Shown in pieces: positions 4,991 through 63,420 of a stretch of 64,000 nt of DNA. The notes beneath the pieces were generated by a model, which saw only the letters and a program-made list of their open reading frames with translations, was not told the DNA's origin and did no database searches. Every line of letters begins with the position of its first letter. Within the stretch, counting starts at the first letter, position 1. The DNA is from Paraspadella gotoi (lineage: Eukaryota; Animalia; Chaetognatha). Location of the stretch: positions 9,611,530-9,675,529 of the forward strand of contig CM119270.1 in NCBI GenBank assembly GCA_051294375.1, given 5' to 3'. A program made the translations under genes and the position numbers.

Positions 4991-7900
4991 TGGGTACCCA
5001 CGCGTTCGGCTCTGGCACCAGGCTAACATGGCATCCTTAATGGCAGCCGCTCCCGTCACCGCCCCACCGGACGCGCCTTTCTTCCAGCTGAAAAAGCGAA
5101 ATTAACATCAATACAATATTATTAATTAAACCTTTAAAATTTGATTTAACCTTGGTTTTGAACCAGATCCACCGCCGCCTCCGGTTTCAAATTTGCTCTT
5201 CGCTGCCGCCATTCCGCCTGAATTAAAAATTTAAGCTAATTATGAATTTAAAAAAAAAGTAATCATACAGGAGTAGAATAGTAGCAATTATTAGAAGGAA
5301 GTTTCAAATTTCAAAAGTTAAAATTTACATATAACTGTATAACTATAAGGCCGTAGTATTTTAGGTTTTGTTTTCCGGAAACTTCGGAAACTAGAGGACA
5401 GCAGATATTTAAACAGAAAACGCAAAAGAAATTTACAGACAAAACAACATCGAGATTGATGGGAAAGAGTTTGCAAAACTAAAAAGTAAAATGAGACTAA
5501 GCTTGAGCAAAGCAGTTACTTAGTTTCGCGGTTTAACGAAATAGATGCCAGAAAACTCAAACTCAAAACGTTTTAGAACAATACCTGGTTGCTCTTTTTT
5601 CTTAGTCGGTGCACCGACTGACCCCATGGCTTTTTTCGGCGGAGCTGACAGATACAATTAGTGTATTGCTTTAATATACATGATCAGCGGTAAATTAACG
5701 CATTCGAAACAAAATAGGACACCGCAAATCAAGAAGCAGTGTAGCTAAAATATGACAAAATTTGTGTCCGAAGATGTATATGCACTTATATTAAAAGAGC
5801 GTCAAACGGCATGCGAGACTAAAAAAATCATTCAAGTTTGACAAAAGAAAAAAAATGAACAAAGACAACGAAGTCTCATCGATCAAATATGGAGACACAA
5901 TTAACCCGTATACGAAAAGACAAAACAATTATGCGTCAGTTAGTTTTAAGAATTTAATAAAAAAAACAGGATGGAGAGCATTTAATAAAAGAAGTTATAG
6001 CCCCCCCCCCGTTTTTTTAGATATCGCGTCATAATTTCTCCGCAGTCACGCATCCATTCGTGCATCGACGATTTAAGTTCAGCCGATCGGAGAAAAAAAA
6101 TCTGTCGCGACTCGAATGAGATCACGTCAACCGTCAAGCAAAGAGATGGGGAGAGTGAAAAGACGACGGCCGTCTTAAAAAAGGCTGACCAACAAGGAAC
6201 TTCGTACAATATTAGAAAGGCTGACCAACAAGGAACTTCGTACAAGATTAGAGAGGCTGACCAACAAGGAACTTTGTACAAGATTAGAGGGCTGACCAAC
6301 AAGGAACTTCGTACAAGATTAGAGAGGCTGACCAACAAGGAACTTCGTACAAGATTAGAGAGGCTGACCTGACCACAAGGAACTTCGTACAAGATTAGAG
6401 AGGCTGACCAACAAAGAACTTAGTACAAGATTGAAAATAACGAAAACAAAGACTTCATCGCTGAATGTGGTCAAAACGAGAGACTGGAGAGTTGAGACTT
6501 GAGAGGACTAACAATCAACATTTTTTCGATACTTTATACTTATATACTTATATAATGACAATCGATCAGGATGAAGAGAATTAAATATTAAACAACTCTT
6601 GAAAAAAGAAACGGTGATAACAAAGTATGCTTAAACTTATGAATAGGGATACCGGCGAATTATCTTTCGGAATGAGTGACTGACTAAAATGACTAAATGG
6701 GCTCAGGAAGTCATTAAAGGAGAAAAAGAGCTTTTACGAGCGTCTTTTTTTTTAAATAAATAATTTTACATTTGGTTCGTCGGTTAATTTACTTTTTTTG
6801 TGTAAAAATCGTCACGTCATCTCTTTGTGCGAGTTGGTTTTATCGCTTCCTAAATTCCCGACGGAGCAAACTTCTCTGACAAATTGTATGAGTCACCACA
6901 ACTGTTATAAATTGTAAATTAGTCAAATAAAACTCTAAAATAGTAAACTTTAAACATTTAAATTTAAAATCATCGTCGTGTAAAAGATGAAGTAGGGAAA
7001 TCTATATCTTTGGTTATAAAAGTCGCGATATTCAAAATTTTGAAATTCACGTTACTTACCAATTGAATGGACACTTTTAAAACAAAAAAACTAAACAAAA
7101 CTTAGCCAATAAACTAGCGCAAACACGGCGGAAAAAGACGAGCCACTTCGTTAAATTTCCCCCCTTGAATTTTTTTCCTAAGTGTTCATGTTCTCTTTTC
7201 GGTTTTCTTTTCATATGTTTGCAGGGAATTTTTTTCCCCCAGAATTTCTCTTTGAAACGCGAATGGTTGGAATTTCGAAGATTTCTGGCGCATAACTCGA
7301 GATTTGTGCGGATTTCGGTTGCGTTAGGAGAAAAGGCTTAGACTGGAGGGAGGCTTCCGGAAATCCATAGGACCGAACCGGGGAACAATGACGTGAAAAA
7401 GAATTTTACTGACCTAAAGACCGTACAGATTTAAAAAAAATTATTAATCATCATTGACCAACATTTATGCGATCAACATTAAACATTAAATCATACTAAC
7501 TTCCGTAATTACTATAATTCCTATTGGCAATTTCTTCCAATTATCGACCACATAAACGGTCACTTCGTCAATCGTACACTGAGAATTTCTTTTTCCAATT
7601 CGATAAGAAAACGAGCTGGGTCAGGACTTTTTGTACCAAACTACGGGGGAACCAAGCCTCGATCGATTGAGAATAAGAAAAAAAAACGTTTGAATAGGAT
7701 TTACATAATAATTGGCAAAACGCGGAACTCCTTATTGTATCCCGCTTCTTTTGTCTTTTGTACTAGCGCCCCTCTCTTTTATCGCGCGACTCCGAATCGA
7801 AAAGGTGAGAATTAAAAGTAGGGACTTGAAAAGCAGAGAGCGAGAGAGACTGAGAGGGAAGGTAAGGAAGGAAGGGGAGAAAAGAACTTGTTTTTGGTGC

Positions 7901-10900
7901 TTCATTCAATCCAGAAGATGTCCATGTATCTGAGGTAAAACAGAAGTACAGATTCTCTTTAACCACCCCCCCCACCCAAAAAAAAGGAGATAAAAATGTG
8001 GATATTACTCAGTGGTCAAGGAATTTTCCTACTAAGGCATGCAGGTTGGATATTGGCGACAGAACGATACAGGTGGCGTTTCTTTTTGATTTAAGCCCCT
8101 CGGGCCTGAGGACAGTCATTGGTCACAATGTTCACTTTTCAATGTACATTGGTGATATTTTGACTACTTTTCCTTCTGCGAAAAAAACCGGCACACTGAT
8201 TATATTTTTAAAATTATTTCGATGTACCGACTCGATTAGAAAGAGTTTCCGTATTTTTCTTTATATAAAGAGGAAAGACATGAAATTGTAACTCGGTTCG
8301 ATAGAGATTCGTCTCTGCCAAGAAAAACAAATGCTTCGTAGAAACATTTTAAAAGTTCGCGAGGAATCGAAGGCACTCCGCCGGGGGAAACGATGACGAG
8401 AGAAAATGGAATGGAAGAAGGTGGAAGGGAGGGAAAAGGTGTGGAATTGAAGAAGGTGGAAGGGAGGGAAAAGGTGTGGAATTGAAGAAGGTGGAAGGGA
8501 GGGAAAAGGTGTGGAATTGAAGAAGGTGGAAGGGAGGGAAAAGGTGTGGAATTGAAGAAGGTGGAAGGGAGGGAAAGGTGTAGAATAGAAGAAGGGAGGG
8601 AAAAGGGAAACGTGTGGGAACAATTTGAGAAGTGGTGGAAGAAATGGGTGGGGAAAGGTTGGGCAGGGAAGAAGGAAGGGAGGGAGGGAGGTGGGTAAAA
8701 AGGAAATGGTAAAAGGATAGTTGGGTAGTGGGAGTGGTTTAGGCGGGAAGCAGTGGATAAAATTGAGACTGAAATGGACGTGAAAGGCGATTCAATTAAT
8801 GAAGTAGAAAAAGTACGATTGATTATTGAAAGATAGATAAAGAAATCAGATCCGAAGGTTGACAAAATGGGAAAAGACTTGAGAAACTAATAGGAGAAGA
8901 GAGAAAGGTGAACCGAACCTCGTGAACGCGGCCCCGAATCCCTGGGAGGAGGATTTGAAGAGGAGGTGAATGAAAAGGAGAGGGTAATAGACCGAGTCAG
9001 TCTATCTCCTTTTATAAATAGATCAACGATGACCAAAATTTACAAAACGTAATTGACCAACACGAACAAAGGAAAAGGGATTGAAAGAAAAATGAATGAC
9101 GAAGCTCGGATTAAGATTTAAATTCCAACTCAAACAAAAAAAAAATTAGGTAAAAAAAATTATAGAATGATAGAGAAAAATACAAAAAACCTTGAATGCA
9201 TATTAAGGCGTAGTGAAAGTTACATACGAAAATTCTAAAAGTCCATTATGAACAACATACAATCAGCGAACATTAATTTGTAAAAAAATTAATTTTATAT
9301 TTTTAATTTTTGCAGTAAGCTATATTTATATATAATACTATCCTTATAAAATCAAAAATTTCAAAATAGGCTTTTCTTAATTTTGATTGCAGATTTAAAT
9401 TCCTCGTTAAAAGTTGATAAAAGAAAATATAAATCAGTTTTTAAAAATTCTTTCATTAAGTGGGTTAAAAATTAAAAAAACTATATTTAATATATAAAAA
9501 TTAATTTTCAGCTTAAAAATAGCTTTTTCTAATTTTTGACCCACTTAATGAAGGAATTTTTAAAAAGAGTTATATTTCTTTTTATCAACTTTTTATGAGA
9601 ATCCAAATCTGCAAAAAATCTTTAAAATAACTGTTTTAAAATTTTAACATTTATTGAATTAGTCTAGTATAAATATGGCCTACTGCGTAAATTGTAAATT
9701 TATTATAAATTATTTTATTACATAAATGTTCATTAGTATAATGTTGTTCGTTCCTCACTTTTTAGAATTTTAATTAAAGTTAAATTTTAGAAAATTTTTC
9801 TACGCCTTAATGCATATCATATCAATCATATCCTGAGCAAGAAAAAGGGTCGGTATCAAAATTCATGAAATTGGTAAAACCAATATAAAAATTATCCATT
9901 CATTTAATAAATAAGCTATGGTGGACTAAAATCCACCAACCGTTCATCAGCGGCCATTGGTGCCGGAGGCAAGTCATTCGCCTCCCAACCCAAAGGTCCG
10001 GGGTTCTAGCCCGGTGGTAGCCTGGCAGTTAAGAGGGACGGGGCGCTTAAACCGCCTGTAACTCGTTGTTACAGCCTGATCCGAAGCTCAGGGACTGCTT
10101 ATATTGAACGGTTCTATCACTAACACATAATAATAATTACTGTCTTTTCAAAGCTATCTTGCCCTGACTTTGGACAGGCTTTGGTGGTATAAGGCCTCCA
10201 TCACTCTTACAAGATAATTACATAGCAGGTCCATGCAAGCTTTCAATCAAGACTCTCTCACAGTCCCGTTTATTCACTCCCAGAGTACCTGGCTTCCCTA
10301 TCAATGAAGTGGAAAATATTTCAAAGAATGTTTCAATTGTATGAAAAGACCACTCCCTTAAGTATTAGATCGGGGAATACTTATTGTACTCATGTTCGTA
10401 TAAAATTTTGTTTTCAATGCAACATCAGACGACGGTTTGACGAATAAACATTAAATTGGCAGCAGATCTCTCTCTCTCTCTCTCCTCGAAAAACCAGTTT
10501 CCAATCCAAAGTTAGCCGAAAAATTCGCGCCGCTCGTTTTCGCGTTTAATTTCCCGTGAAAGTCCGCCGCTTTTTAATTAATCTCGCCGCGCAAAAAGGG
10601 GAAGAGCGCTAAGGGGGCTCCTCTCGATTCGCCGGGATTGGTTTGTTTCCAATCTGTTTCGTAGCGGAGATGCTTATCCCTTTCGCCCCCCGTCGGTTAG
10701 CGTTAAAAGGAGAGCGAAATTTTGTGTGTGTATGTGTTGAAGAGAGAGAGCCATCAGATCAAATTGGAAAAAAAAAAAACCAGTTCCAATTTTTTCCCGC
10801 TCTAATCGAGACCACTTAATTGGCGATTCCCCCCCCCCGCGTATCAATCTTTCATTTATTATTTTAATTTTGGTTTAAGTGAAGTTTTCTTTAAAATTGA

Positions 10901-13900
10901 AGTCTAGGAGAAAGGAGCTCAGCGTGTTATCTGGACAAAAAAGGCAGTGGTAGTGCAGATAAGGACACTTTGCGGCCCCAAAATAACTTCTCTCCATTAA
11001 AAAAAAAAAACTGATAAAGGAAAAAATAGATTAAAAGGGAACCTGAAATGGTTTCTTTTTTTTAAATAAGAGGAAAAGGAAAAAAAGGTTTTCGACCCAT
11101 TTAATGAATGGATCAATTAAAATCAGGTCCATGGGAGACAAAAAAAGAGAGACGCTAATTGCCTTTTTGTTTCGACAGTGGCGAGGACCAAACACGCCAG
11201 TCAATCGGCTATTAGGCTATTAGGCCCCTACAATCAAAAATTTAAAAAATATGTTCCAAAATTTCCCGCGATTCCGTGACTGATGGTTTTGTCTTTGCCT
11301 CAGAAGAAGCAGCTGATAAGCAGATCCGACTAAAAAAAACAAATGCGCGTAGCAATATGAAACATAACAAATTAAAATACCTCAAAGATGAGAAGCCATA
11401 TCTAAGCCATATTTGAGCGTAACGACGACGACGAAAACGACGGTCGCAAAGAAGTAAAGCTTTCGCCCATCTGGCGAGGAAAATAAAATATCTCGCAAAA
11501 TTATCGGCGATTCCGTGATTTCAGGACTGACAATTTGCCTCTTCGGCAATACTGTAACAGTAACGCTGACATCTAAAAATACATCGGTATTCTCCTTTTT
11601 AACAGACGAATGTTTCAAAGTAAGGGAAACAAAATTAAAAAGCGATAAATTAGGCCAACAAAACAGAGACCCCGTCTCTCCTGAACCCAGAGAGAGAGAG
11701 AGATATAGAGAGAGATTCAACTGGGCTGAGAAGTATCGTTTAATCAAAAGAAACGTCTTTAACGAATGACTACACATACGACATTAGCGAAGAACACATT
11801 AATCACGGTCCACTGACATCTTCGTCATCGTCTCAGTCTCCATCGTTGTCGTCTCTGTCTCCATCGTTGTCCCGTCGTAAAGATCCAAGGCTTTCTTCTT
11901 ATATCCGTCTTTGTCGTCGTTCTAGTTTACAATCCCGTTCGCATCATAATTATGCAAAGTCAGTAGCTCTTCCTTGTTGTTGTTGTTATTCTCAGGTGAC
12001 ATTTTTACGAGGTTATTAGACCAAGGGTAGAATTTCTTCGCCCATGTTGCCCACTGATCGTTGCCATCATCGCTATCTTAATTATATCTATAATGTAATG
12101 CTTTTATTTATGTTAATGATAACACAATTATTAAATATATCACAAACGGAAAAATATGAGGAGCTTTTTGGCAACGAAGAAGCCGAACCCTAAATTATCT
12201 CTCTCGTTTTCATTCTCGCTCTCGCTCTCTCCGGATGGGTTCTTTAGTGGAGTTCCAGATTATCGATCATTGATTATGACACAACCATTAACGTTGGCAG
12301 CGATGTAGGATCGGCCTTTCCAAGGTAGGACTTCCTCGGAACAGAAAAAGCTGGTTAAGATGAAAACATTTTCGAAGGCAAAGCTTTTTCCTCCCACGAC
12401 TCTCTCTCTCTCTCTCTCACTGCGTTGATAGCTAAGGATGGGTACGATATACTAATTTTAATTTTCAATCCATTTGTCATCTCGTCATTTCTCATCAACT
12501 AATTATTCACTGTCATATTACAGTCAAAGTTTCGATACTATTACGTCATTTTGGTACCGTTCGGTGACGTTTTATCCGAAGTCAATTGTATTATTTAAAA
12601 CGAAAAAACCTAGTACATTTCCATAAAACAACCCACTGAGCGAGAGAGCAGTTGCCAGTTCTCTTTCTTCTCTCGTTTCGCCGACTGAACGATGACTTTT
12701 TCCGAGAGTGACACTTAAATTCGTGGTCGCCCCACCCCCCTTAACCCCCTCCCCGTTAAGAGCAGTGCCCCCCGTCAGGAAAACCGGCGAAAAGGGGTGA
12801 TGGTCCCTGACGTGAGTGAAGCAGTTAAATCGATTTTAGGGAAAAAGAAAAAAATAGTCTCTAATTGCCAAAACTTGACTCATAAAACTTAAAACATATA
12901 TTTTTTAACCGTATCCTTTGCTCGGTGATATTATATATTAGTATATATATTTTAGTAACCTTTCATGAACAATAAAAGGTTTATATTGTTTATAATATAT
13001 AAATATATATATATATATATTATTTCGTCTTCTACAGGGACCTGCTATGTAATTATCTTGTAAGAGTGATGGAGGCCTTAAACCACCAGAGCCTGTCCAA
13101 AGTCAGGGGCAAGATAGCTTATTTATTAAATGAATGGATAATTTTTATATTGGTTGTACCAATTTCATAGACAAAACGTATTACAAAACGTTACAACCTA
13201 CAAAGCTACATCTTCACTTTTAGAATAGGTTTTTCAGGGTAGTAAACATTAGTTAGAGACATATTTAGGAGTACCATCTGCTGATAAGTAGAGAAATTAA
13301 GAAATTTTTTAAATTCCTTCTTTAAATCTAGTCATTTTCATTGAGATTAGTTTTTGTTGGTTCAAATTTTATTTCTTTAAAATTACTCCCTTGTATTCCG
13401 AGACGAGACATAAACTCCCTAATTTTTACTACTCTTTTCCAGAGAAATAAACATGATCTAGTAAACATTTATCGTACAAAAAAAAAGGCGCAAAGATTGA
13501 AGTGAATGAGTCATAAAGATCAAAACAAGTGGCCTGTAGTAATTTAAATCTTTGGATCTCGTAATTTGCTTCCTCCCGATTCCCCAACGGGATAAAGAAA
13601 AAGAAGAGAAAAAGAAAAAAAGAAAAAAAGGAAAAGAAAAAATAAAACCAAAAGAAAAAGGCAATTAAGTTTACTACTACGAGAGATAGATTAATACGTG
13701 CCATCATAGAAAAACTAATGTAAAGCATTAGTCATGTACGTATGTTTGTCGAAATTTCGAGAATATTGAGTTTTAAAGTTAAATAACGAATTCAAAAACG
13801 TAATTCAGCCGCTTTAAATAAACCCGTTTTCCACTGCATGGGAATCAATATCACGTGACCTAGAGGCGACGATCCGTTTAATTTAATCTCGGCATAAAAA

Positions 13901-30391: not shown

Positions 30392-32192
30392 TAATCAATC
30401 AAATAAATAGTTGGTGAATGAATCAATAAATTAATGAATGATTGAAAGAGTGAGAGATTGAATGAATAAATGAAAGAGAGAAAGAAACAAATCAATCAAT
30501 CAATCCTTTTGCCTCTCCACCGGCAATGCTCGAAAGATCCGAGACTGAAGCGATGCTCGCGCTGCAGTCGATCAAATCCAATTTTCGTCTCTCGTGTACT
30601 TCTTCCGAAATTCTCTCCAAATTTGCCAGCGCCGATTTATACTCTTCTTTTTTGTCTTTGGTCAGTTCCTAGGGAAGGAATATTCAAAAATCCCCGGGAT
30701 TAAAATGAAGCGGAGTAATTCGTGGTACATTTCGAATGAGAGTATAAGCTCTTTAATCAATTTACAATACATTCTCTCTATACATTTACAATAAAGAGAA
30801 CGTAACATGGCTTTTAACATGACGGTATAACTTCACCTCATGAATGTATTTAGCCACTCAAAATGGCTTAGCGGGAGTACGCAAAATCCTAACCGCGAGT
30901 TATCATCAACAGTCCTAACGGCTTCCCGCACCGTTGTTAAGGAAGACTACTAAGCGATGACACTGAAGGTCTAAAGACCCCCACGCCAACAGGTGAGATG
31001 TCGCCCTCCCGGCTGGTAATAGAGTTGCCATATTACAAGCACTAATATATCACTAATATATCGGGTCACGAAACTTATTTTAAAAATTTTTATGTTACGA
31101 TTTGCGACTTACCTGACGACTGAATCCCCAAAACGAGGCTTACCTGCAACTCTTCCATCTTGATTCTTAGAAGAGAAACTTCGTTGCTCAGCGATTCCTT
31201 CAATTCCATATAAGGAAGCGACTTTTCGATGTGAGCCCAATTCTTCCTCTGATGTTTGGCGATCTTTCGCTCCACCTCTAAATATTTCGCATTGAGTTGG
31301 TTGTAGTTTCGCTCGTCGAGACGTTTTTTTCTTTCCACCTCCATCAGCCTTAGGGATGAGAAAGTATAGATTTGATGTTTATTTCAAAGGATTGATTGAT
31401 TGATTTGATAGTTTTTTTAATAAAATTATTGATAAATAAATTGATTGATTGATCGATTGCTTTAATTTTTTATTGATATATTTGATTTGATTTGATTTCC
31501 CATAGGCGTTACTGAGATGAGAACTCCCAACCAATGAATTTGTCTCGAGAATGATTATAGCTCTTCTCCTGGTTCTGTCTTCCCCACCTGATGGTATTGT
31601 AGTTCAGCATATCTTGCCAGGCGTCGTCCAGCGTCACCGTCTTGTCCTCTTCCAGCCTCATCTCAGCCAATTTGATCGTTTCTTTGGCGGCGGCGAGTTG
31701 CAGGGCGTCCTCAGCCGCCGCCGCCGCCGCAGCTTCCACGCGGGGACGCAGCTCGCCGGCCAGGCGGAGGTAGTCGAAGTAAGGGCGGGACTTTTTGAGG
31801 GCGGGGCCAAGGGAGTCCGCCTCGGTCTGGAGGAAGACGGGATAATGTTAAATGTTAAAAGAAAAAACTATTAATATCAATAAGACTATGAATTTATGAC
31901 TAAATCAATTGAACAAACGGATAATTAAAACTTAAAAGACGAAAAAAAAGGGATTAATAAGAAATAGAAAATAAATAAGCAGAGCTCCCCTCGATTTGAA
32001 ATAATCAATGAATCAATCAACCTGCAGTTTTTGGGAAGCCGACGCCGATAGAGTCTTCAACTTTCTCCTCGTTTCCATTAAACTCATTTCCACTTGATTC
32101 AATTCGTCCGACGACGAGTTGAGTCGCTCCAACTCCGTCTGGACGCGAGGATCGAGTGGCTCGTCCGCGTACTCTTCGTCCGAGTCAGCCAT
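29552..32192 (-). CDS. SH3BP5: SH3 domain-binding protein 5 (SH3BP5/parcas/REI-1 family Rab11 GEF), about 485 aa, 5 exons
   Basis: Exons 32022-32192, 31588-31826, 31144-31348, 30521-30668, 29552-30246, all phases consistent. Family motifs LDPRVQTELERLN, KSRPYF, AAAKETIKLAE, LDDAWQDMLN, IEKSLPY, YKSALANLERISEEVHERR, then a long acidic/Thr-rich tail. Confidence 0.9.
30253..30400. repeat. Compound (AATG)n(AATC)n microsatellite
   Basis: Directly visible; abuts the acceptor of the last SH3BP5 exon. Confidence 0.95.
30959..31016 (+). repeat. Truncated 3' fragment of the twister-bearing SINE-like family
   Basis: GACACTGAAGGTCTAAAGACCCCCACGCCAACAGGTGAGATG aligns with 55510-55560. Confidence 0.45.
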
Positions 32193-33066
32193 CGTGGAGA
32201 GAGGGTGTTGAAGGTGTTTTACGAGACTATGACAGGACACATTTAGAGAGTTTTTTGATGAGGTAGATGATTGTTTGTTGTTCGTTTGTTTTGTTTTGTT
32301 TTGTTTGTTTGACTGGCGAGTAAATGAGAAAAAAAGAGAGAAGTTGTCTTCATTTTCATACAAGTCGTGGAATGCTTCCAGCGAGAAATATGTTCAACGA
32401 CAAGCACAGAAAACATACATTTCCGTTAGAAAAAAACTTTTTAAAATTCAACTTCAAAATCAACTCCGCGAAATAAAGTCTCTTAGTTTTGTCTCACTGA
32501 GCGGAACAACGAACCCAGTTATCTGAATAAAACTCAAATTTTATCGACTCGATAGATTTGATGTAAACAGATAAGATTGGCAAAGCGAGTGACAGAGAAA
32601 ATTGTTTTGACGACCCCGTCTATACCTTTCGAGAAATATCTATCAATTCCTTTCGTTTCAGTTCTATTAGGTTTTGTTTCAGCTGAGTTCACCAAATTAT
32701 TCCTTGTATACTTGTCTAAAATATCCAAGAAATCAACGCCCTTCCCTTCCTTCCCACCCGCGCTCCTTTATTCTAAGACCACCACGATCCCTGGTGACGA
32801 CTCCACTCGTAAAAAACTCCCGAGAAGATCTCGTCTCTAGTCGCCCTCTTTAGGCTTTTCAACGCGTCTGTCGGCAAAATCGAGAATTTCTCTGTGGGGG
32901 AAAATGGACTCGAAACGATAGGAGATATTTTTTTCGGGGCTGCCGACGCCGGAGATTCTTAGTTTTAGATTTTTTTTTAGTTGGAGCCGTTCATTTTTTT
33001 AAACTCGAGATAGTGTTTTGTAGTTAGAAAATATTTTGGAATTACAAGTAAGGGTGAAGGGAGAGA

Positions 33067-33575: not shown

Positions 33576-36500
33576 CTCTCGTCTCTCCTCTCTCTCCTCT
33601 CTCTCTCTCTCTCTCGCTTATAATATAAATTATTCGTTGCCAGCGGCGAAAGAGGCCAAAGAAATTCGGAAATACAGCATCCCTTCGATGTTGCGTTCTT
33701 GGTGGCCATGGGAAGTCGAGCAAAGCGTTGAGCGAGAGGGTAAAGTTTAATTAATAATTTATATGAAGAATTTCTTTATTATTTTCTTCATTTATTTAGT
33801 TTTTAACTGCATGTTCGGCTAATTTCTATCTGTGAATCAAATATTGCTATAAAAATTTGATTCCTTTATTTGAATTTCGATGGATTGAGTGATGAATTAA
33901 ATGACTTCTTGATTCATTTATTAATCGAATAAACTAAATTATTTATCCATCGTTTTATTTAGATTCGGGCGAAGCCGAGGAAGAATCGCTATTAAATCGA
34001 GGTATCTTTACACTAGAAAATTCTCGTTACAATAAATAAACTAGATTGTGAGAGTGTCTTTATGAAAAGCTTGCTTGCTGCTATGTTATTAGTTTGGAAG
34101 CGCGATGGAGGCCGATATCCGTCAAATCCGGTCCAAAGTCAAGGGCAGGATAGCACGTTTTTTAAATGAATGGATCATTTTTGTATTGTTTATCCATCGC
34201 CAGACATCGCGGCCGAGATCGCCGTCCTGCAATCTGGCGCCGAGGAACTCCTATCCGACGCCGCGGCGTGGTTCCACTTTCTCGTCGATCTCGGGCGGCG
34301 TCGCGTCGCCGCCAACGCCGCTCTTTACTTCTCTCTCGGTGTCGTGGCGCCGGTTCTGGCGGCGCTCTGGAAATTGGATGCCGCGAGGAGGAGGAAGAGG
34401 GAGAGGACGGAGAAGAGGAAGAAGAAGAAGGACGCCATCGGTCGGTTTAATTGTTGTTGTCATTGTTAAATACTCGATAATTAAACCTAATCTTTGTTTT
34501 TTAACTTTAAATCAAACCTCCTTTTCTCTTCCGCAGGCGAACTCGTGGACTCTTACTTCGTTGTCAGCGCGAGAAAGGAAATGATGGAGAGGCTGGCGAG
34601 ATTCGGCGACCTAAAAATATCCGCGCCTGATATCAGGCCGAGCCTCTCCGACGAGGACAAACAGGCGAGAGAGAGGCTAATGAGGTAGCTGCCAATTAGT
34701 AAGACCGCGGTAAGGAGATGACATAAATAAATAACTAATAAGTATTTGTTCTTGAGCAGCAGGAATCTGAGTGAAAATATCCTAACGGGATAATAGATAA
34801 TATAATATATATTTAAAATATGAATTTTTAAAATATTCCCCCTCGCCGGAAATGGAACGTGATCTTGGCATGGAACCAGGCTTGGGGTTTTTCCAGTCAG
34901 TTTCCGGCCGTTCTTTCTCTTCCAGTAGGTTAAGTACCGGGTTTATAAGCGTGATGAACTCAATGTACGACTATAAAAATGATAATAAATTTCGCACAAC
35001 CTTCAGGGGAAAAAGGCGGATTTCCGTCAAGAGGCCGGCGAATATTTCTCACGCGGTTTAGACAACATTCAACGCCGATTGGACTTGACGACGGGAGAGG
35101 GGGACGTCACGCTTGGACTCAAACGAGACGTCGGTGACGTCACCGACGCCGCCGACGATGACGAATCCGTCTCTGCCCGTCGCGACGCCGTCAAACAACA
35201 GGGCAGAGAATCCAGCGCCGGAAACGCCGCTCGTTTTTGCGGCAACTTTTATTTCCGCAGCGCGGACGTTATCGGCGACGACGTTCTCTCCTCTTACGTC
35301 GATGCCGCGGCAGTCGACGCTGCCGCAGCAGACGCCGCTCCGGAGGCTAGAGACGAAAGCGCGAGCGGATTGGAAGATGGCGGTCATGAAGACGAATCAG
35401 ATGACGACGATTTTGATCTGGAAGGTGGCGCCGCCCTGGCGAGCAGCAATGTCAATAGCAACAACGAGAACGAGGTGAGGCAGGAGCGGAAATGGCGTTG
35501 ATGGATCCTGGAACGATTTTATTTTGTGGTTAAATTGTACATTCACTGTTTAAGATCTTCCAGGTCGGTGATTTTCTTTCTGCTTCTATGAGCACAAACC
35601 AACCTTAACTGTAAGCAGTAACCACCCCTAACCCTAACTACTTCTAACCACCCTTAACCCTAACCACCCCTAAATCTAACTACCCCTATCATTAACTACC
35701 TAACTACTTAACTATATAACTACCCGTAACCTAACCTAACTACCTAACCTTAACCACCCTTAATCCTATCTACCCCTAAACCTAACCACCCCTAACTACC
35801 CATAACACTCACAACCCCTAACCCTAATTAACTGTAACCGATAACCGATAACACGAACCACCCCTAATTCTTACCACCCCTAACCCTAACCATTTAACCT
35901 TAACCTTAATTCAACAAGGAAAAAAAAATATAATGAAGTATGCGAATAAAAAAATGAGCGACCGATTGGGTTCCGTTCGCTGAAAGTAAAAGTATTCCGA
36001 TTTGGAAGCAATTTCCCTCTTGGTCGCAGGATTCGCCTGATGACGACGTTGATGATTTGATGAACGACGACGACGACAACGACGACGACGTAAGAGACGA
36101 GAACGTCGACGACGACGACGACGCATTGACCGTCGATCATCAGCCTCTTCGAGTGGAACCGCGTTTATCGAGAGGTGAGTCGCTGGCGACTGGAATCAAG
36201 GGATTGAGGGCAAACGTTGATTCTGACAAAATGGCCCACCAACTCTAATTAAATCGGCCTTTCCTTTCCTTTTTAATCATTCCTATCGTTTTTATTTTTA
36301 TTTCTTTCCTTCCTTTCCTTCTATTGTTTCCGGGTATTTTACTCATCTTTTTTCCTTTACTCTTTTCTTTTCTTCTTTGTATTTTTTTTTCCCCTTTTTT
36401 TTCTTTTCACTTCTCTTTTCTTTTCTTCTTAGTTTTCTTTTCTTTTTTCTTAGTATTCTTTTCTTTTCTCTTTACTTTTTTCTCTTCCTTTCTCTTTTCT

Positions 36501-37508
36501 TTTCTTTCTCCTCGTAATTGGTAATGTCCTTTATTTCATTTTTAACCGCTTACAGCAGATCCCTGCTCTACAATTCACTTTGTCGGTCCGACGCCTTCTT
36601 GTCATTTCAATCATTTCAGAACATCAAATTATGATAAATTACGCAAAAAAAAACAAAAACGTTTGTTTGTCTGTCTGTCCGTCCGTCACTTCGTCGACCC
36701 GTAGCTTTGATCGCCAATTACTCAATACTCATGTGTAGATAAGACCATTCACCTGAAATTTTGTATGTGGGTTGATAAGCGAATGATTAACTTAGAAATA
36801 AAGTTTCGATGAAATCATCCGAGTGGAAATGAGTTTAAGTGGAAATAAAAAAAATTACGCTTAACTGTTTAATTTTGCATTTTTCATATTATATGAAATA
36901 TAAAATTATAAAAAAATTGGAATAACAAATACTACAAATATAACAAACACTACAACCACTACAACCACCGCAACTACCATAAAAACCAAAAAGACAATAA
37001 CCAGCATAACCTTCATTATCACAAGAATAAAAGAAATAGTATGGTGGACTAAAATCCACCAACCGGCCATTGGTGCCGGAGGCAAGTCATTCGCCTCCCA
37101 ACCCAAAGGTCCGGGGTTCTAGCCCGCTGGTCGTCTGGAAGTTAAGAGGGACGGGGCGCTTAACCCGCCTGTAACATGGTGTTAGAGCCTGATCCGAAGC
37201 TCAGGTACTGCTTATATTGAACGGTTCTGTCACTAACACATAACAATATTTACTGTCTCTTCAATAGCAAGATTAATCATAACTTATCATCTGATTCGCT
37301 GCTTACCGCTACGTGCTTCCGTGCAGAACCGGCGTTGTTTACTCAAACTTGTTTCTTTAACATAATGAAAATCCTTTTTCCTCTATTATTTCCCATTAAC
37401 TTCCTTATCATTTCAGACGTCGACGCGTCTTTTCCGGAAAACTTCGTCGCTCTCGCCGTCGTCACTTCCGCCAAATACTGCAAGGGCGGCGGAGAAACGT
37501 TCGTGTGA
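33229..37508 (+). CDS. Uncharacterised probable membrane protein with acidic C-terminal half; internal in-frame TAG at 34686-34688 (263 aa if terminated, 505 aa if read through)
   Basis: GT-AG exons 33229-33496, 33644-33739, 33963-34001, 34204-34440, 34537-34709, 35007-35474, 36030-36174, 37417-37508 join with consistent phases. Hydrophobic N-terminus, second hydrophobic segment ALYFSLGVVAPVLAALW followed by a basic stretch, AATAAA signals downstream. No family recognised. Confidence 0.65.
35618..35910. repeat. Degenerate CCCTAA/CCTAAC telomere-like low-complexity tract
   Basis: Repeated variants CCCTAA, CCTAAC, ACCACCCCTAA. Confidence 0.7.
37042..37262 (+). mobile_element. SINE family A copy 2 with twister motif (37138-37211)
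   Basis: Aligns end to end with 9920-10150; imperfect TSD AATAGTA/AATAGCA; lies in the last intron of the plus-strand gene in sense orientation. Confidence 0.85.
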
Positions 37509-38064: not shown

Positions 38065-59462
<21,398 letters not shown>

Positions 59463-61898: not shown

Positions 61899-62749
61899 GG
61901 TTAAATATATTAAAGAAAAAATGATGTCGTGCATGTTTTTTAGTGTGAGGCTGAAAGTATGTTGATAATAAATATATTGAAATATATATAAAGATAATTT
62001 ACAAGACCTGGTTTAAAATGTGCAAAGCGAAAAAATAAAATTTAAGACAATCTAAAATTAAATAATGAAAAATACAAAAACATTAGGGAAATGTTGATGT
62101 ATATGTTAGACACTCGGAGCGCGAGGAACGGGAGGAAGACCGAGGATGCCGGGACGAAGATGCTTCCGACTGTCGATTAGGCGACAGGGGGGTTTTATTT
62201 TTGTTTTTTTTCGTTCGTGTTGTTGTCATTACTGTAGTCTTTGACGTCGAAGCACTCGCTTGAGCACAGACAGAGTAAGTGGTGCGATAGTGATTGGCAA
62301 TGCTACCGCTAGAAAGAAGTTCTCTGGCATTGGTCTTTGAAAATGCTTTTGACATCGTTATTGTGTCGTGTTTTTTCCTTTTTCATTTGTTGTTGGTTGT
62401 GATTCTCCTAGTCTTCTCGCTTGTGGGGATTGATCTGGCGTTCTCGCGTGGAGGCTGAGGAGAGAGTGGAGGGAGGAAAAAACGTAAAGGGAGGGGTGGG
62501 TCGGGGGGAAAGGTGGGTGGTTGGGAGTGAGAGGGGAGGAGGAGGAGGAGGAGGAACCGAGTTGGGCGAACGCTGCTCGTCTGAATATTTAACGAGTTGT
62601 CCGAGTTCTTTCCTGTAGCCGGCTGCACTCGTTTGTAAAAACCGGGCTGGCCGCCCCCCCTTGGCTGGTACAATCGCTGAGATGTCCCTGATTCAACCCA
62701 ATGTCTCGTCGGAACCCTACTGCTGGTTTGATGCGGCGATGTTAGCGTT

Positions 62750-63420
62750 TCCGGTCTAACTGACTTATTGATCGGTGACGATTCACTACACGGTAAGGTC
62801 CTTCATATGGTGCTGTAGCAGTGGAAGGGTGAACGCCTGCTCTACCGACGAAAACGTGTTGAGCGGTGTCGAGGGAGATGGAATCGGTTTTTGATGAGAC
62901 GGATGTCGCCGTCGCCTGGAGGCGTGCCCTTTGAAAGATTCGAAAGTTGACGTTGTACTGTTGTTGTACAGGCGTGCGTTGTCGAGATTGAAAGGTCGTA
63001 CGACGATCATCCGGGGACGCTAAGCCTATCCCCGCAAGCGCATTGTGCGCCGACTGACTAGGCGCGATCGCATGTCTTGCTTATGCTGAGATCATGGCAA
63101 TTTCCTGAAAACCATTTGTCGCGTATTTATTCTTTGCTAAGGCGAAGAGGCGATCGTTTGAGTTGCCTGTGAAAGCTGATGCTTTATTGATGCTTTAATC
63201 CCCAGTGTTTCATTCAGTTGTCATCCACAAAGCTTGAGTTGAATTGTGTTCCGCCTGTCTGTAGTGGATACAGGACGGTGTATACGCGATACACTTATAT
63301 CTCGAGGCTCAAAAAGCTCAATAGATCGGTTGGAAGTGAGGGTGGTGGAATTTGGGATGCGCCTGCCCATCTTGAAAAACAGTGTGCGTCGATTACTTTT
63401 GCCTCTGTGCATCTAGACAG
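62750..63420 (-). pseudogene. Decayed Ty3/Gypsy LTR-retrotransposon integrase
   Basis: Frame-disrupted motifs in the expected order: FSRW (~63370), TTDRG-TQF (~63250), LNETLGIK, FHRQLK (~63165), LDTAQHVFV..APYEGPYRVV (GPY/F module, ~62790-62870). Purine run AAGGGGGGG at ~62655 could be a polypurine tract. Confidence 0.75.

Follow-up and report, generated by a model that had tools for sequence, protein, structure and literature searches.

A twister-type motif behind a tRNA-derived promoter in a likely Helenus-like solo long terminal repeat of Paraspadella gotoi

Anatomy of the repeat

The window analysed here is the whole 64,000-nucleotide stretch at positions 9,611,530 to 9,675,529 of contig CM119270.1 (assembly GCA_051294375.1) of the chaetognath Paraspadella gotoi, and the element in question is a short repeat that occurs in it twice, as copies A and B (Table 1). 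From 5' to 3' it carries a hairpin, a transfer RNA (tRNA)-like part with boxes of an RNA polymerase III (Pol III) promoter, and a motif of the twister ribozyme type. The family was studied from these two copies and from the contigs of four public sequencing runs of the same organism, of which 23105, 13687, 5389 and 1518 aligned to positions 9860-10220; these numbers count in the flanks, which belong to a host repeat, and contig depths were not taken as copy number.

Regarding the ends, self-search of the window gave 90% identity between the two copies, both of which begin with TAT and finish with TCA. The boundary at 9917 was recovered in all four runs, with 191, 162, 130 and 34 contigs having loose ends before it; the flanks were unrelated (agreement 0.40-0.47), a single run gave about 190 or more distinct 5' junctions, and 9917 was the first base of 13/32 pieces among those listed. 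The 3' boundary at 10150 is less well documented: among the matches listed, 59 loose ends lay behind it in run X5, and among the pieces listed 4/32 stopped there and 5/32 at 10145. The original prediction had placed the start at 9920, a position with which a 7-bp duplication fits in copy A alone; copy B and the loose ends rule this duplication out and move the start to 9917. Copy A sits in a second abundant interspersed repeat, seen at 9864-9916 with 10151-10274, at 13035-13168 and 34035-34191 (both on the minus strand) and at 267-305. Skip joints near 9919-10162 in the contigs match its insertion into this host, and the ends, the target duplications, the empty site and the many insertion sites are all direct observations. 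A poly(A) or simple-repeat tail was looked for at the 3' end of both window copies and none was found. The folding z-score of the whole element was -2.36 for copy A and -1.11 for copy B.

As for the tRNA-like part, it begins 33 nt within the element, downstream of the 7-bp hairpin. Its acceptor-like stem (9950-56/10015-21) has 6/7 pairs and its T-like stem 5/5; a good B box of GGTTC type is read at 10002-12, the A box (TRGCY ... YGG) is matched only in part at 9958-69, and the anticodon-like loop is at 9982-88. The arm labels follow the tRNA numbering. ARAGORN called no tRNA at this part; the promoter boxes were read directly from the sequence.

The original prediction had named the element a tRNA-headed short interspersed element (SINE). 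Such a SINE, or a Pol III ribozyme repeat of Schistosoma type, would be copied from tandem units by a long interspersed element (LINE) or a Penelope-like element, and the tRNA-derived boxes and the size agree with this; moreover, the Schistosoma SINE-like repeats carry a Pol III promoter ahead of a hammerhead (PMC6765202), and eukaryotic twisters are linked to non-LTR elements, that is, those lacking long terminal repeats (LTRs) (PMC8501958). The anatomy speaks against a SINE on several counts: the duplications are of 4 bp in both copies, against the larger ones of the tandem animal non-LTR retrozymes (PMC7229834); the ends are sharp and common, with the same CA in both copies (n = 2) and no poly(A) or repeat tail; the tRNA-like part is not at the 5' end; and this 5' end lies away from the cut site, unlike in Perere-3 (PMC8501958). 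A Pol III transcript would start near the tRNA, leaving out the first bases of the element, and with the tRNA 33 nt inside a SINE cannot easily inherit those upstream bases, which an LTR can. The SINE label was given up on these grounds, and this origin appears unlikely.

The twister motif

The motif follows the strand order of type-P5 twisters. In copy A, P5 (10024-30/10093-99) and P3 (10056-62/10068-74) each have 7/7 pairs; in both copies P4 (10075-79/10088-92) has 5/5 pairs with a UNNNAAGC loop, L4 being 10080-87. Both also have the catalytic G10037-A10038, the cut loop U10048-A10049-A10050 and the two pseudoknots, T1 (10039-41/10081-83, 3/3 pairs) and T2 (10054-55/10086-87, 2/2 pairs). Copy B is minus two P5 pairs and one P3 pair, with the core intact. 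P2 has 1/3 pairs in copy A and 2/3 in copy B, with one extra in each if A10034 bulges. All the pairings listed in the original prediction were found where it had put them, and its P5 order, its predicted cut site at U10048/A10049 and its upstream Pol III-type promoter are supported by the sequence; its caveat of a weak P1 and P2 was equally well placed, P1 being a 6-nt linker. At the level of sequence, the twister-type motif is real.

In the family table, position 10051 differs from copy A in 97-100% of the depth, and copy B differs likewise; 10083 is the one catalytic or pseudoknot position with a variant at 5% or more. Two other readings of the motif were discarded: the register proposed by our own model (GAGGG at 10033-37, UAA at 10059-61), in which T1, T2 and P2 fail to pair, and a type-P1 order with a downstream G-A, of which the descriptor returned none.

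The descriptors used for the statistics were composed after inspection of the sequence, and the shuffle counts are to be read accordingly. With all helices demanded, exactly copies A and B matched in the window and 0/1000 block-shuffled windows did; the core alone matched in 5/1000. When pairing was demanded at the first two positions of P2, copy B was the sole match in the window, and 4/300 window shuffles and 2/200,000 element shuffles matched. For reference, 136 distinct candidates with the same strand order were collected from phages, and removal of 26 that were poorly paired left 110 well-paired twisters, 86 of which trained a model of our own. This model ranked both copies top in the 64 kb, with 23.2 and 21.8 bits (rough E values of 5e-4 and 1e-3), the next score being 8.8. 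A 3-nt P2 (70/110), the same T1 variant (16/110) and a P3 (23/110) all occur in the phage set, so that these are natural features.

Regarding the phage matches in themselves, a 3-bp P2 is commoner among them than the 4-bp P2 of the Rfam consensus, and on three contigs (L108, with 5 matches in 1643 bases, L106 and L115) type-P5 twisters are clustered a few hundred bases apart. A metagenome scan with the P4-L4 motif gave 11 loci, all 11 of them chance matches with no further similarity; a scan for natural short-P1 twisters, made with the GAGGG variant only, gave two prokaryote-genome matches and one viral match, none of them short-P1.

It could be asked whether the resemblance to a twister is due to chance. 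The lack of an Rfam match (see below) would agree with it, as would the folding z-score of the 91-nt region, which is only -0.11; the shuffled windows, the rank of both copies far above background in the phage-built model, and the conserved residues and both pseudoknots, all in order, make it very improbable. As for activity, an assay of 1948 natural twisters found that flaws in P1 and P2 are tolerated and that the pseudoknots, L1 and L4 are critical (PMC11662667); the latter are intact in the element. The ribozyme of the family is predicted, with good but not full confidence, to be active.

A probable Helenus-like solo LTR and its proposed cycle

Helenus (TRIMp3) elements are miniature LTR retrotransposons with tRNA-derived sequence in their LTRs (Kojima 2024, PMC10886601); those of animals have 4-bp duplications and primer-binding site (PBS) regions in common with Gypsy elements, and solo LTRs occur (PMC10886601). 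Four wasp Helenus LTR consensuses in the supplement start with TA and finish with CA. On this basis the element is most readily taken as a solo LTR derived from a miniature LTR retrotransposon of Helenus type, with a twister predicted to cut once per LTR, a reading to which we give a probability of roughly 0.55. The class rests on tRNA position, size, duplication and ends, and the element is called Helenus-like here rather than a proven member.

In the proposed cycle, which past the DNA anatomy we infer at every step, there would be a parent whose two LTRs flank a PBS and a polypurine tract (PPT). Pol III would start near 9945 in its 5' LTR and then read through; cuts at U10048/A10049 of both LTRs would free a unit RNA made of the LTR 3' half, the internal part and the LTR 5' half; a host ligase of RtcB type would circularise it; and reverse transcriptase and integrase of Gypsy elements would turn the unit into DNA and integrate it in full or solo-LTR form. 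A cut in mid-body is hard to explain in a SINE of one unit, and is expected in an LTR, where two such cuts free a unit-length RNA. The same cycle accounts for the inheritance of the 33 nt that precede the tRNA, and under it the element can survive being cut behind its promoter.

A number of findings weigh against this solo-LTR reading. To begin with the anatomy, neither window copy has a second LTR, an internal region, a PBS or a PPT, both being solitary, which is to be expected of solo LTRs; the terminal inverted repeat is almost nil; the two 4-bp duplications come from the only two target sites readable; and the T4 run of copy A, which copy B lacks, could halt Pol III within the LTR. As for the twister, P1 is absent as a helix, the linker, when folded back on itself, having no more than one wobble pair and measuring 6 nt against 14-30 nt in 110/110 phage twisters; the third P2 pair, C-G in 68/70 phage twisters, is a mismatch or bulge in the element; the family table holds no compensatory double change; single-strand folding yields competing hairpins that block the core; and our own model places both copies in the wrong register, so that it supports the resemblance and not the register. 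The original prediction had staked part of its case on a covariance-model hit, and on that half the outcome went against it: four Rfam scans returned no twister match at gathering (37.6 bits for RF02684, Twister-P5) or at E<=10. In the positive control, 21 motifs in 20 phage loci were all called Twister-P5, 20 of them above gathering, which makes the miss on the element real; it is plausibly due to P1, the Rfam consensus having an 8-bp P1 and no P3. Finally, it should be noted that the tolerance assay of PMC11662667 used type-P1 twisters.

Some of these points would equally suit a Helenus-type solo LTR in which the twister is a passenger from another retroelement, now slow or dead, with ordinary LTR strand transfer and a transcript ended by the T4 run near 10145. 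The shortened P1, the imperfect P2, the blocking hairpins and the T4 of copy A agree with it; in addition, most of the Helenus LTRs examined in the supplement have a T-run and no ribozyme after the tRNA (PMC10886601), and the P3 of the element is akin to that of RTE-linked Schistosoma mansoni twisters (PMC8501958, Table 1). Set against this, neither copy has lost any of the catalytic and pseudoknot positions, and their near invariance in the family points the same way, weakly, the family being young; flaws in P1 and P2 rarely silence natural twisters (PMC11662667), and copy B has no T4. A passenger twister is thus rather unlikely.

The weak inverted repeat and the missing PBS, PPT and internal region would also fit some other element with fixed ends, such as a DNA transposon that is non-autonomous and has no clear inverted repeats, or a direct integrant of circular RNA lacking a two-LTR parent. 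DNA transposons usually need terminal inverted repeats, which the element does not have; moreover, published Helenus families (PMC10886601) offer a match for each of its tRNA in the LTR, its 4-bp duplication and its TA...CA ends. Elements of this other sort are improbable.

Within the solo-LTR reading, the self-complementary linker at P1 suggests that cutting may involve two copies. Two such linkers can pair with each other as a 6-bp helix (-8.3 kcal/mol). With pseudoknots uncounted, a nested strand-swapped pair of twisters reaches -48.7 kcal/mol in copy A, where two monomer cores have -37.2 kcal/mol, and -30.3 against -18.6 kcal/mol in copy B. Unconstrained co-folding of copy A gave the intermolecular linker helix at 0.71-0.88. 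There is a precedent in the hammerheads of axolotl retrozymes, whose helix III is one pair with a palindromic tetraloop and which cut far better as dimers (PMC7229834). A self-complementary 6-mer has about a 5% chance of occurring, and in copy B co-folding left the dimer helix at <=0.02, the blocking hairpin winning; this counts against the dimer because copy B has the usual letter of the family in that hairpin. P1 is also reported to be dispensable (PMC6154101, PMC11662667), so that the monomer may cut anyway. In a tentative model, with the odds somewhat against it, the palindromic P1 would have the twister cut most efficiently when two LTRs pair with their strands swapped, and the circle would be spared.

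Surroundings of the element and comparison with known systems

Table 1. Positions, in window coordinates, of the element, its parts and its target sites
Feature	Position	Strand	Basis
Copy A, whole element, 234 bp, TA...CA ends, likely solo LTR	9917..10150	+	Alignment with copy B, empty site, contig loose ends
Left target-site duplication AAGC, 4 bp	9913..9916	+	Empty site and comparison of ends
Right target-site duplication AAGC, 4 bp	10151..10154	+	Empty site and comparison of ends
5' hairpin, 7 bp, ahead of the tRNA-like part, U3-like segment	9919..9938	+	Folding; likewise in copy B
Long-range 9-bp stem (9938-9946/10105-10113) around the tRNA-like part and the twister	9938..10113	+	In copy B the 5' arm is deleted
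tRNA-derived Pol III-type promoter	9950..10022	+	Stems and boxes; Helenus box motifs from PMC10886601
Twister fold, type-P5 order with P3 stem; predicted cut U10048/A10049	10024..10099	+	Pairing check, descriptor
P1 position: 6-nt self-complementary linker, one wobble pair and palindromic tetraloop	10042..10047	+	Identical in both copies
T4 run, possible Pol III terminator	10145..10148	+	Copy A only
Empty site: uninterrupted form of the repeat hit by copy A	13035..13168	-	Self-search
Copy B, 224 bp, 10-nt deletion; ATAG duplication at 37036-39 and 37264-67	37040..37263	+	Self-search, alignment

Apart from the element, the window contains exons of SH3BP5 (31509-32393) and of an axonemal dynein heavy chain (47641-57290), both on the minus strand, which mark it as animal DNA. 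The named matches to the dynein come from various animals, and a search with SH3BP5 returned none. A match to the Rfam Vault RNA family at 39382-39505 on the plus strand (36.3 bits, gathering 34) has boxes of Pol III type and finishes in a T-run, and is probably a vault RNA gene of the animal. A short frame at 62742-63080 (minus strand) has a terminal motif resembling the GPY/F region of Gypsy integrases; Pfam gave no match for this frame at E<=0.1. Older repeat pairs, interspersed or inverted and 72-78% identical, were found at 44233-44793/57545-58024, 9313-9654/44387-44715, 3936-4234/36548-36904 and 59832-60015/60671-60840, and minisatellites at 6180-6436 (36-bp units) and 8407-8595 (35-bp units).

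Regarding known systems, the element is like Helenus in having tRNA-derived boxes inside an LTR of up to about 320 bp, a 4-bp duplication, solo LTRs and, as some Helenus do, TA...CA ends. It differs in its twister, which occupies the place after the tRNA that a T-run takes in most Helenus, in its very weak terminal inverted repeat and in that no two-LTR copy was seen. In the text of PMC10886601 a ribozyme is named nowhere except in reference 44. By eye, two Synergus LTRs of the supplement, Helenus-2_SyJa-LTR and Helenus-2_SyUm-LTR, have an apparent type III hammerhead core with three stems directly 3' of the tRNA part; a long loop-loop pairing is apparent as well, the usual T-run is absent, and the paper does not remark on the motif. 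A text search of the same supplement for twister L4 motifs gave none in LTR context, although its 70-letter line breaks may hide motifs. To judge from these sequences, a ribozyme at the position 3' of the tRNA in an LTR seems to have arisen more than once. There is a bolder proposal, which we consider doubtful: the element would be an animal LTR retrozyme mobilised by Gypsy elements and with its own tRNA-type Pol III promoter, cutting only as a strand-swapped "double twister" linked by the palindromic P1, so that two-LTR transcripts would be trimmed to unit length and the circle and thousands of solo LTRs left uncut; together with the wasp hammerheads it would form a recurring, ribozyme-swapping Pol III class of terminal-repeat retrotransposons in miniature (TRIM).

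Compared with the type-P5 twisters of RF02684, the strand order, the catalytic G-A, the U-A cut site, L4 and both pseudoknots are shared. The P1 of the element is a 6-nt palindrome and not an 8-bp hairpin, its P2 is imperfect and a P3 is present; it is below Rfam detection and sits in an animal repeat. The T-variant twisters of Perere-3, of the RTE clade (Liu 2021, PMC8501958), are likewise in an invertebrate retroelement and have a similar P3; they are of type P1, and the autonomous non-LTR element that carries them has them at its 5' end, its target site lying beside the cut. In the element described here the predicted cut is 131 nt inside.

With animal non-LTR retrozymes and the Schistosoma repeats the element shares being a short non-coding repeat with a ribozyme (PMC7229834, PMC6765202, PMC7761336, bioRxiv 10.64898/2026.07.22.740005). 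Those retrozymes differ in being tandem, with type I hammerheads and larger duplications and no LTR, PBS or PPT (so also in the reviews, PMC7761336 and PMC7229834), and in being tied to Penelope-like elements; the copies described here are solitary, with a twister and 4-bp duplications, and so fall outside that group. In the available literature to 2026, animal retrozymes are non-LTR and hammerhead-based, and for twisters in retroelements a role has been shown solely at the 5' terminus of non-LTR elements (PMC8501958). A literature search, with most subscription papers outside its reach, returned no twister in an LTR, no Helenus ribozyme and no swapped twister dimer. A mid-LTR twister would, if true, be a second biological role for this ribozyme and would provide a compact natural example in which the dimer dependence of a twister can be tested. 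The element also shows that ribozymes of this kind are missed by Rfam, and that elements of this sort get filed as SINEs.

Finally, in its way of working the element would resemble plant LTR retrozymes. These carry a hammerhead in each LTR, and the two cuts free a unit RNA without R repeat (PMC4918200); once this RNA has become a circle, Gypsy machinery makes from it full or solo-LTR DNA, whose insertions have 4-bp duplications (PMC4918200). The element has in common with them (Cervera 2016) a ribozyme in the LTR, 4-bp duplications, solo LTRs and a proposed mobilisation of Gypsy type. It differs in being in an animal, in having a twister instead of a type III hammerhead and in its internal tRNA-type promoter; its LTR is also shorter, 234 bp against 300-400 bp in plants. 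Rfam found no hammerhead in it, which lowers its membership among LTR retrozymes and not the likeness in how it would work. In conclusion, a twister in a tRNA-bearing LTR would unite two separately described types of element, Helenus and the retrozymes, and on this comparison the element would be an animal counterpart of the plant LTR retrozymes that are cut by their own ribozymes.

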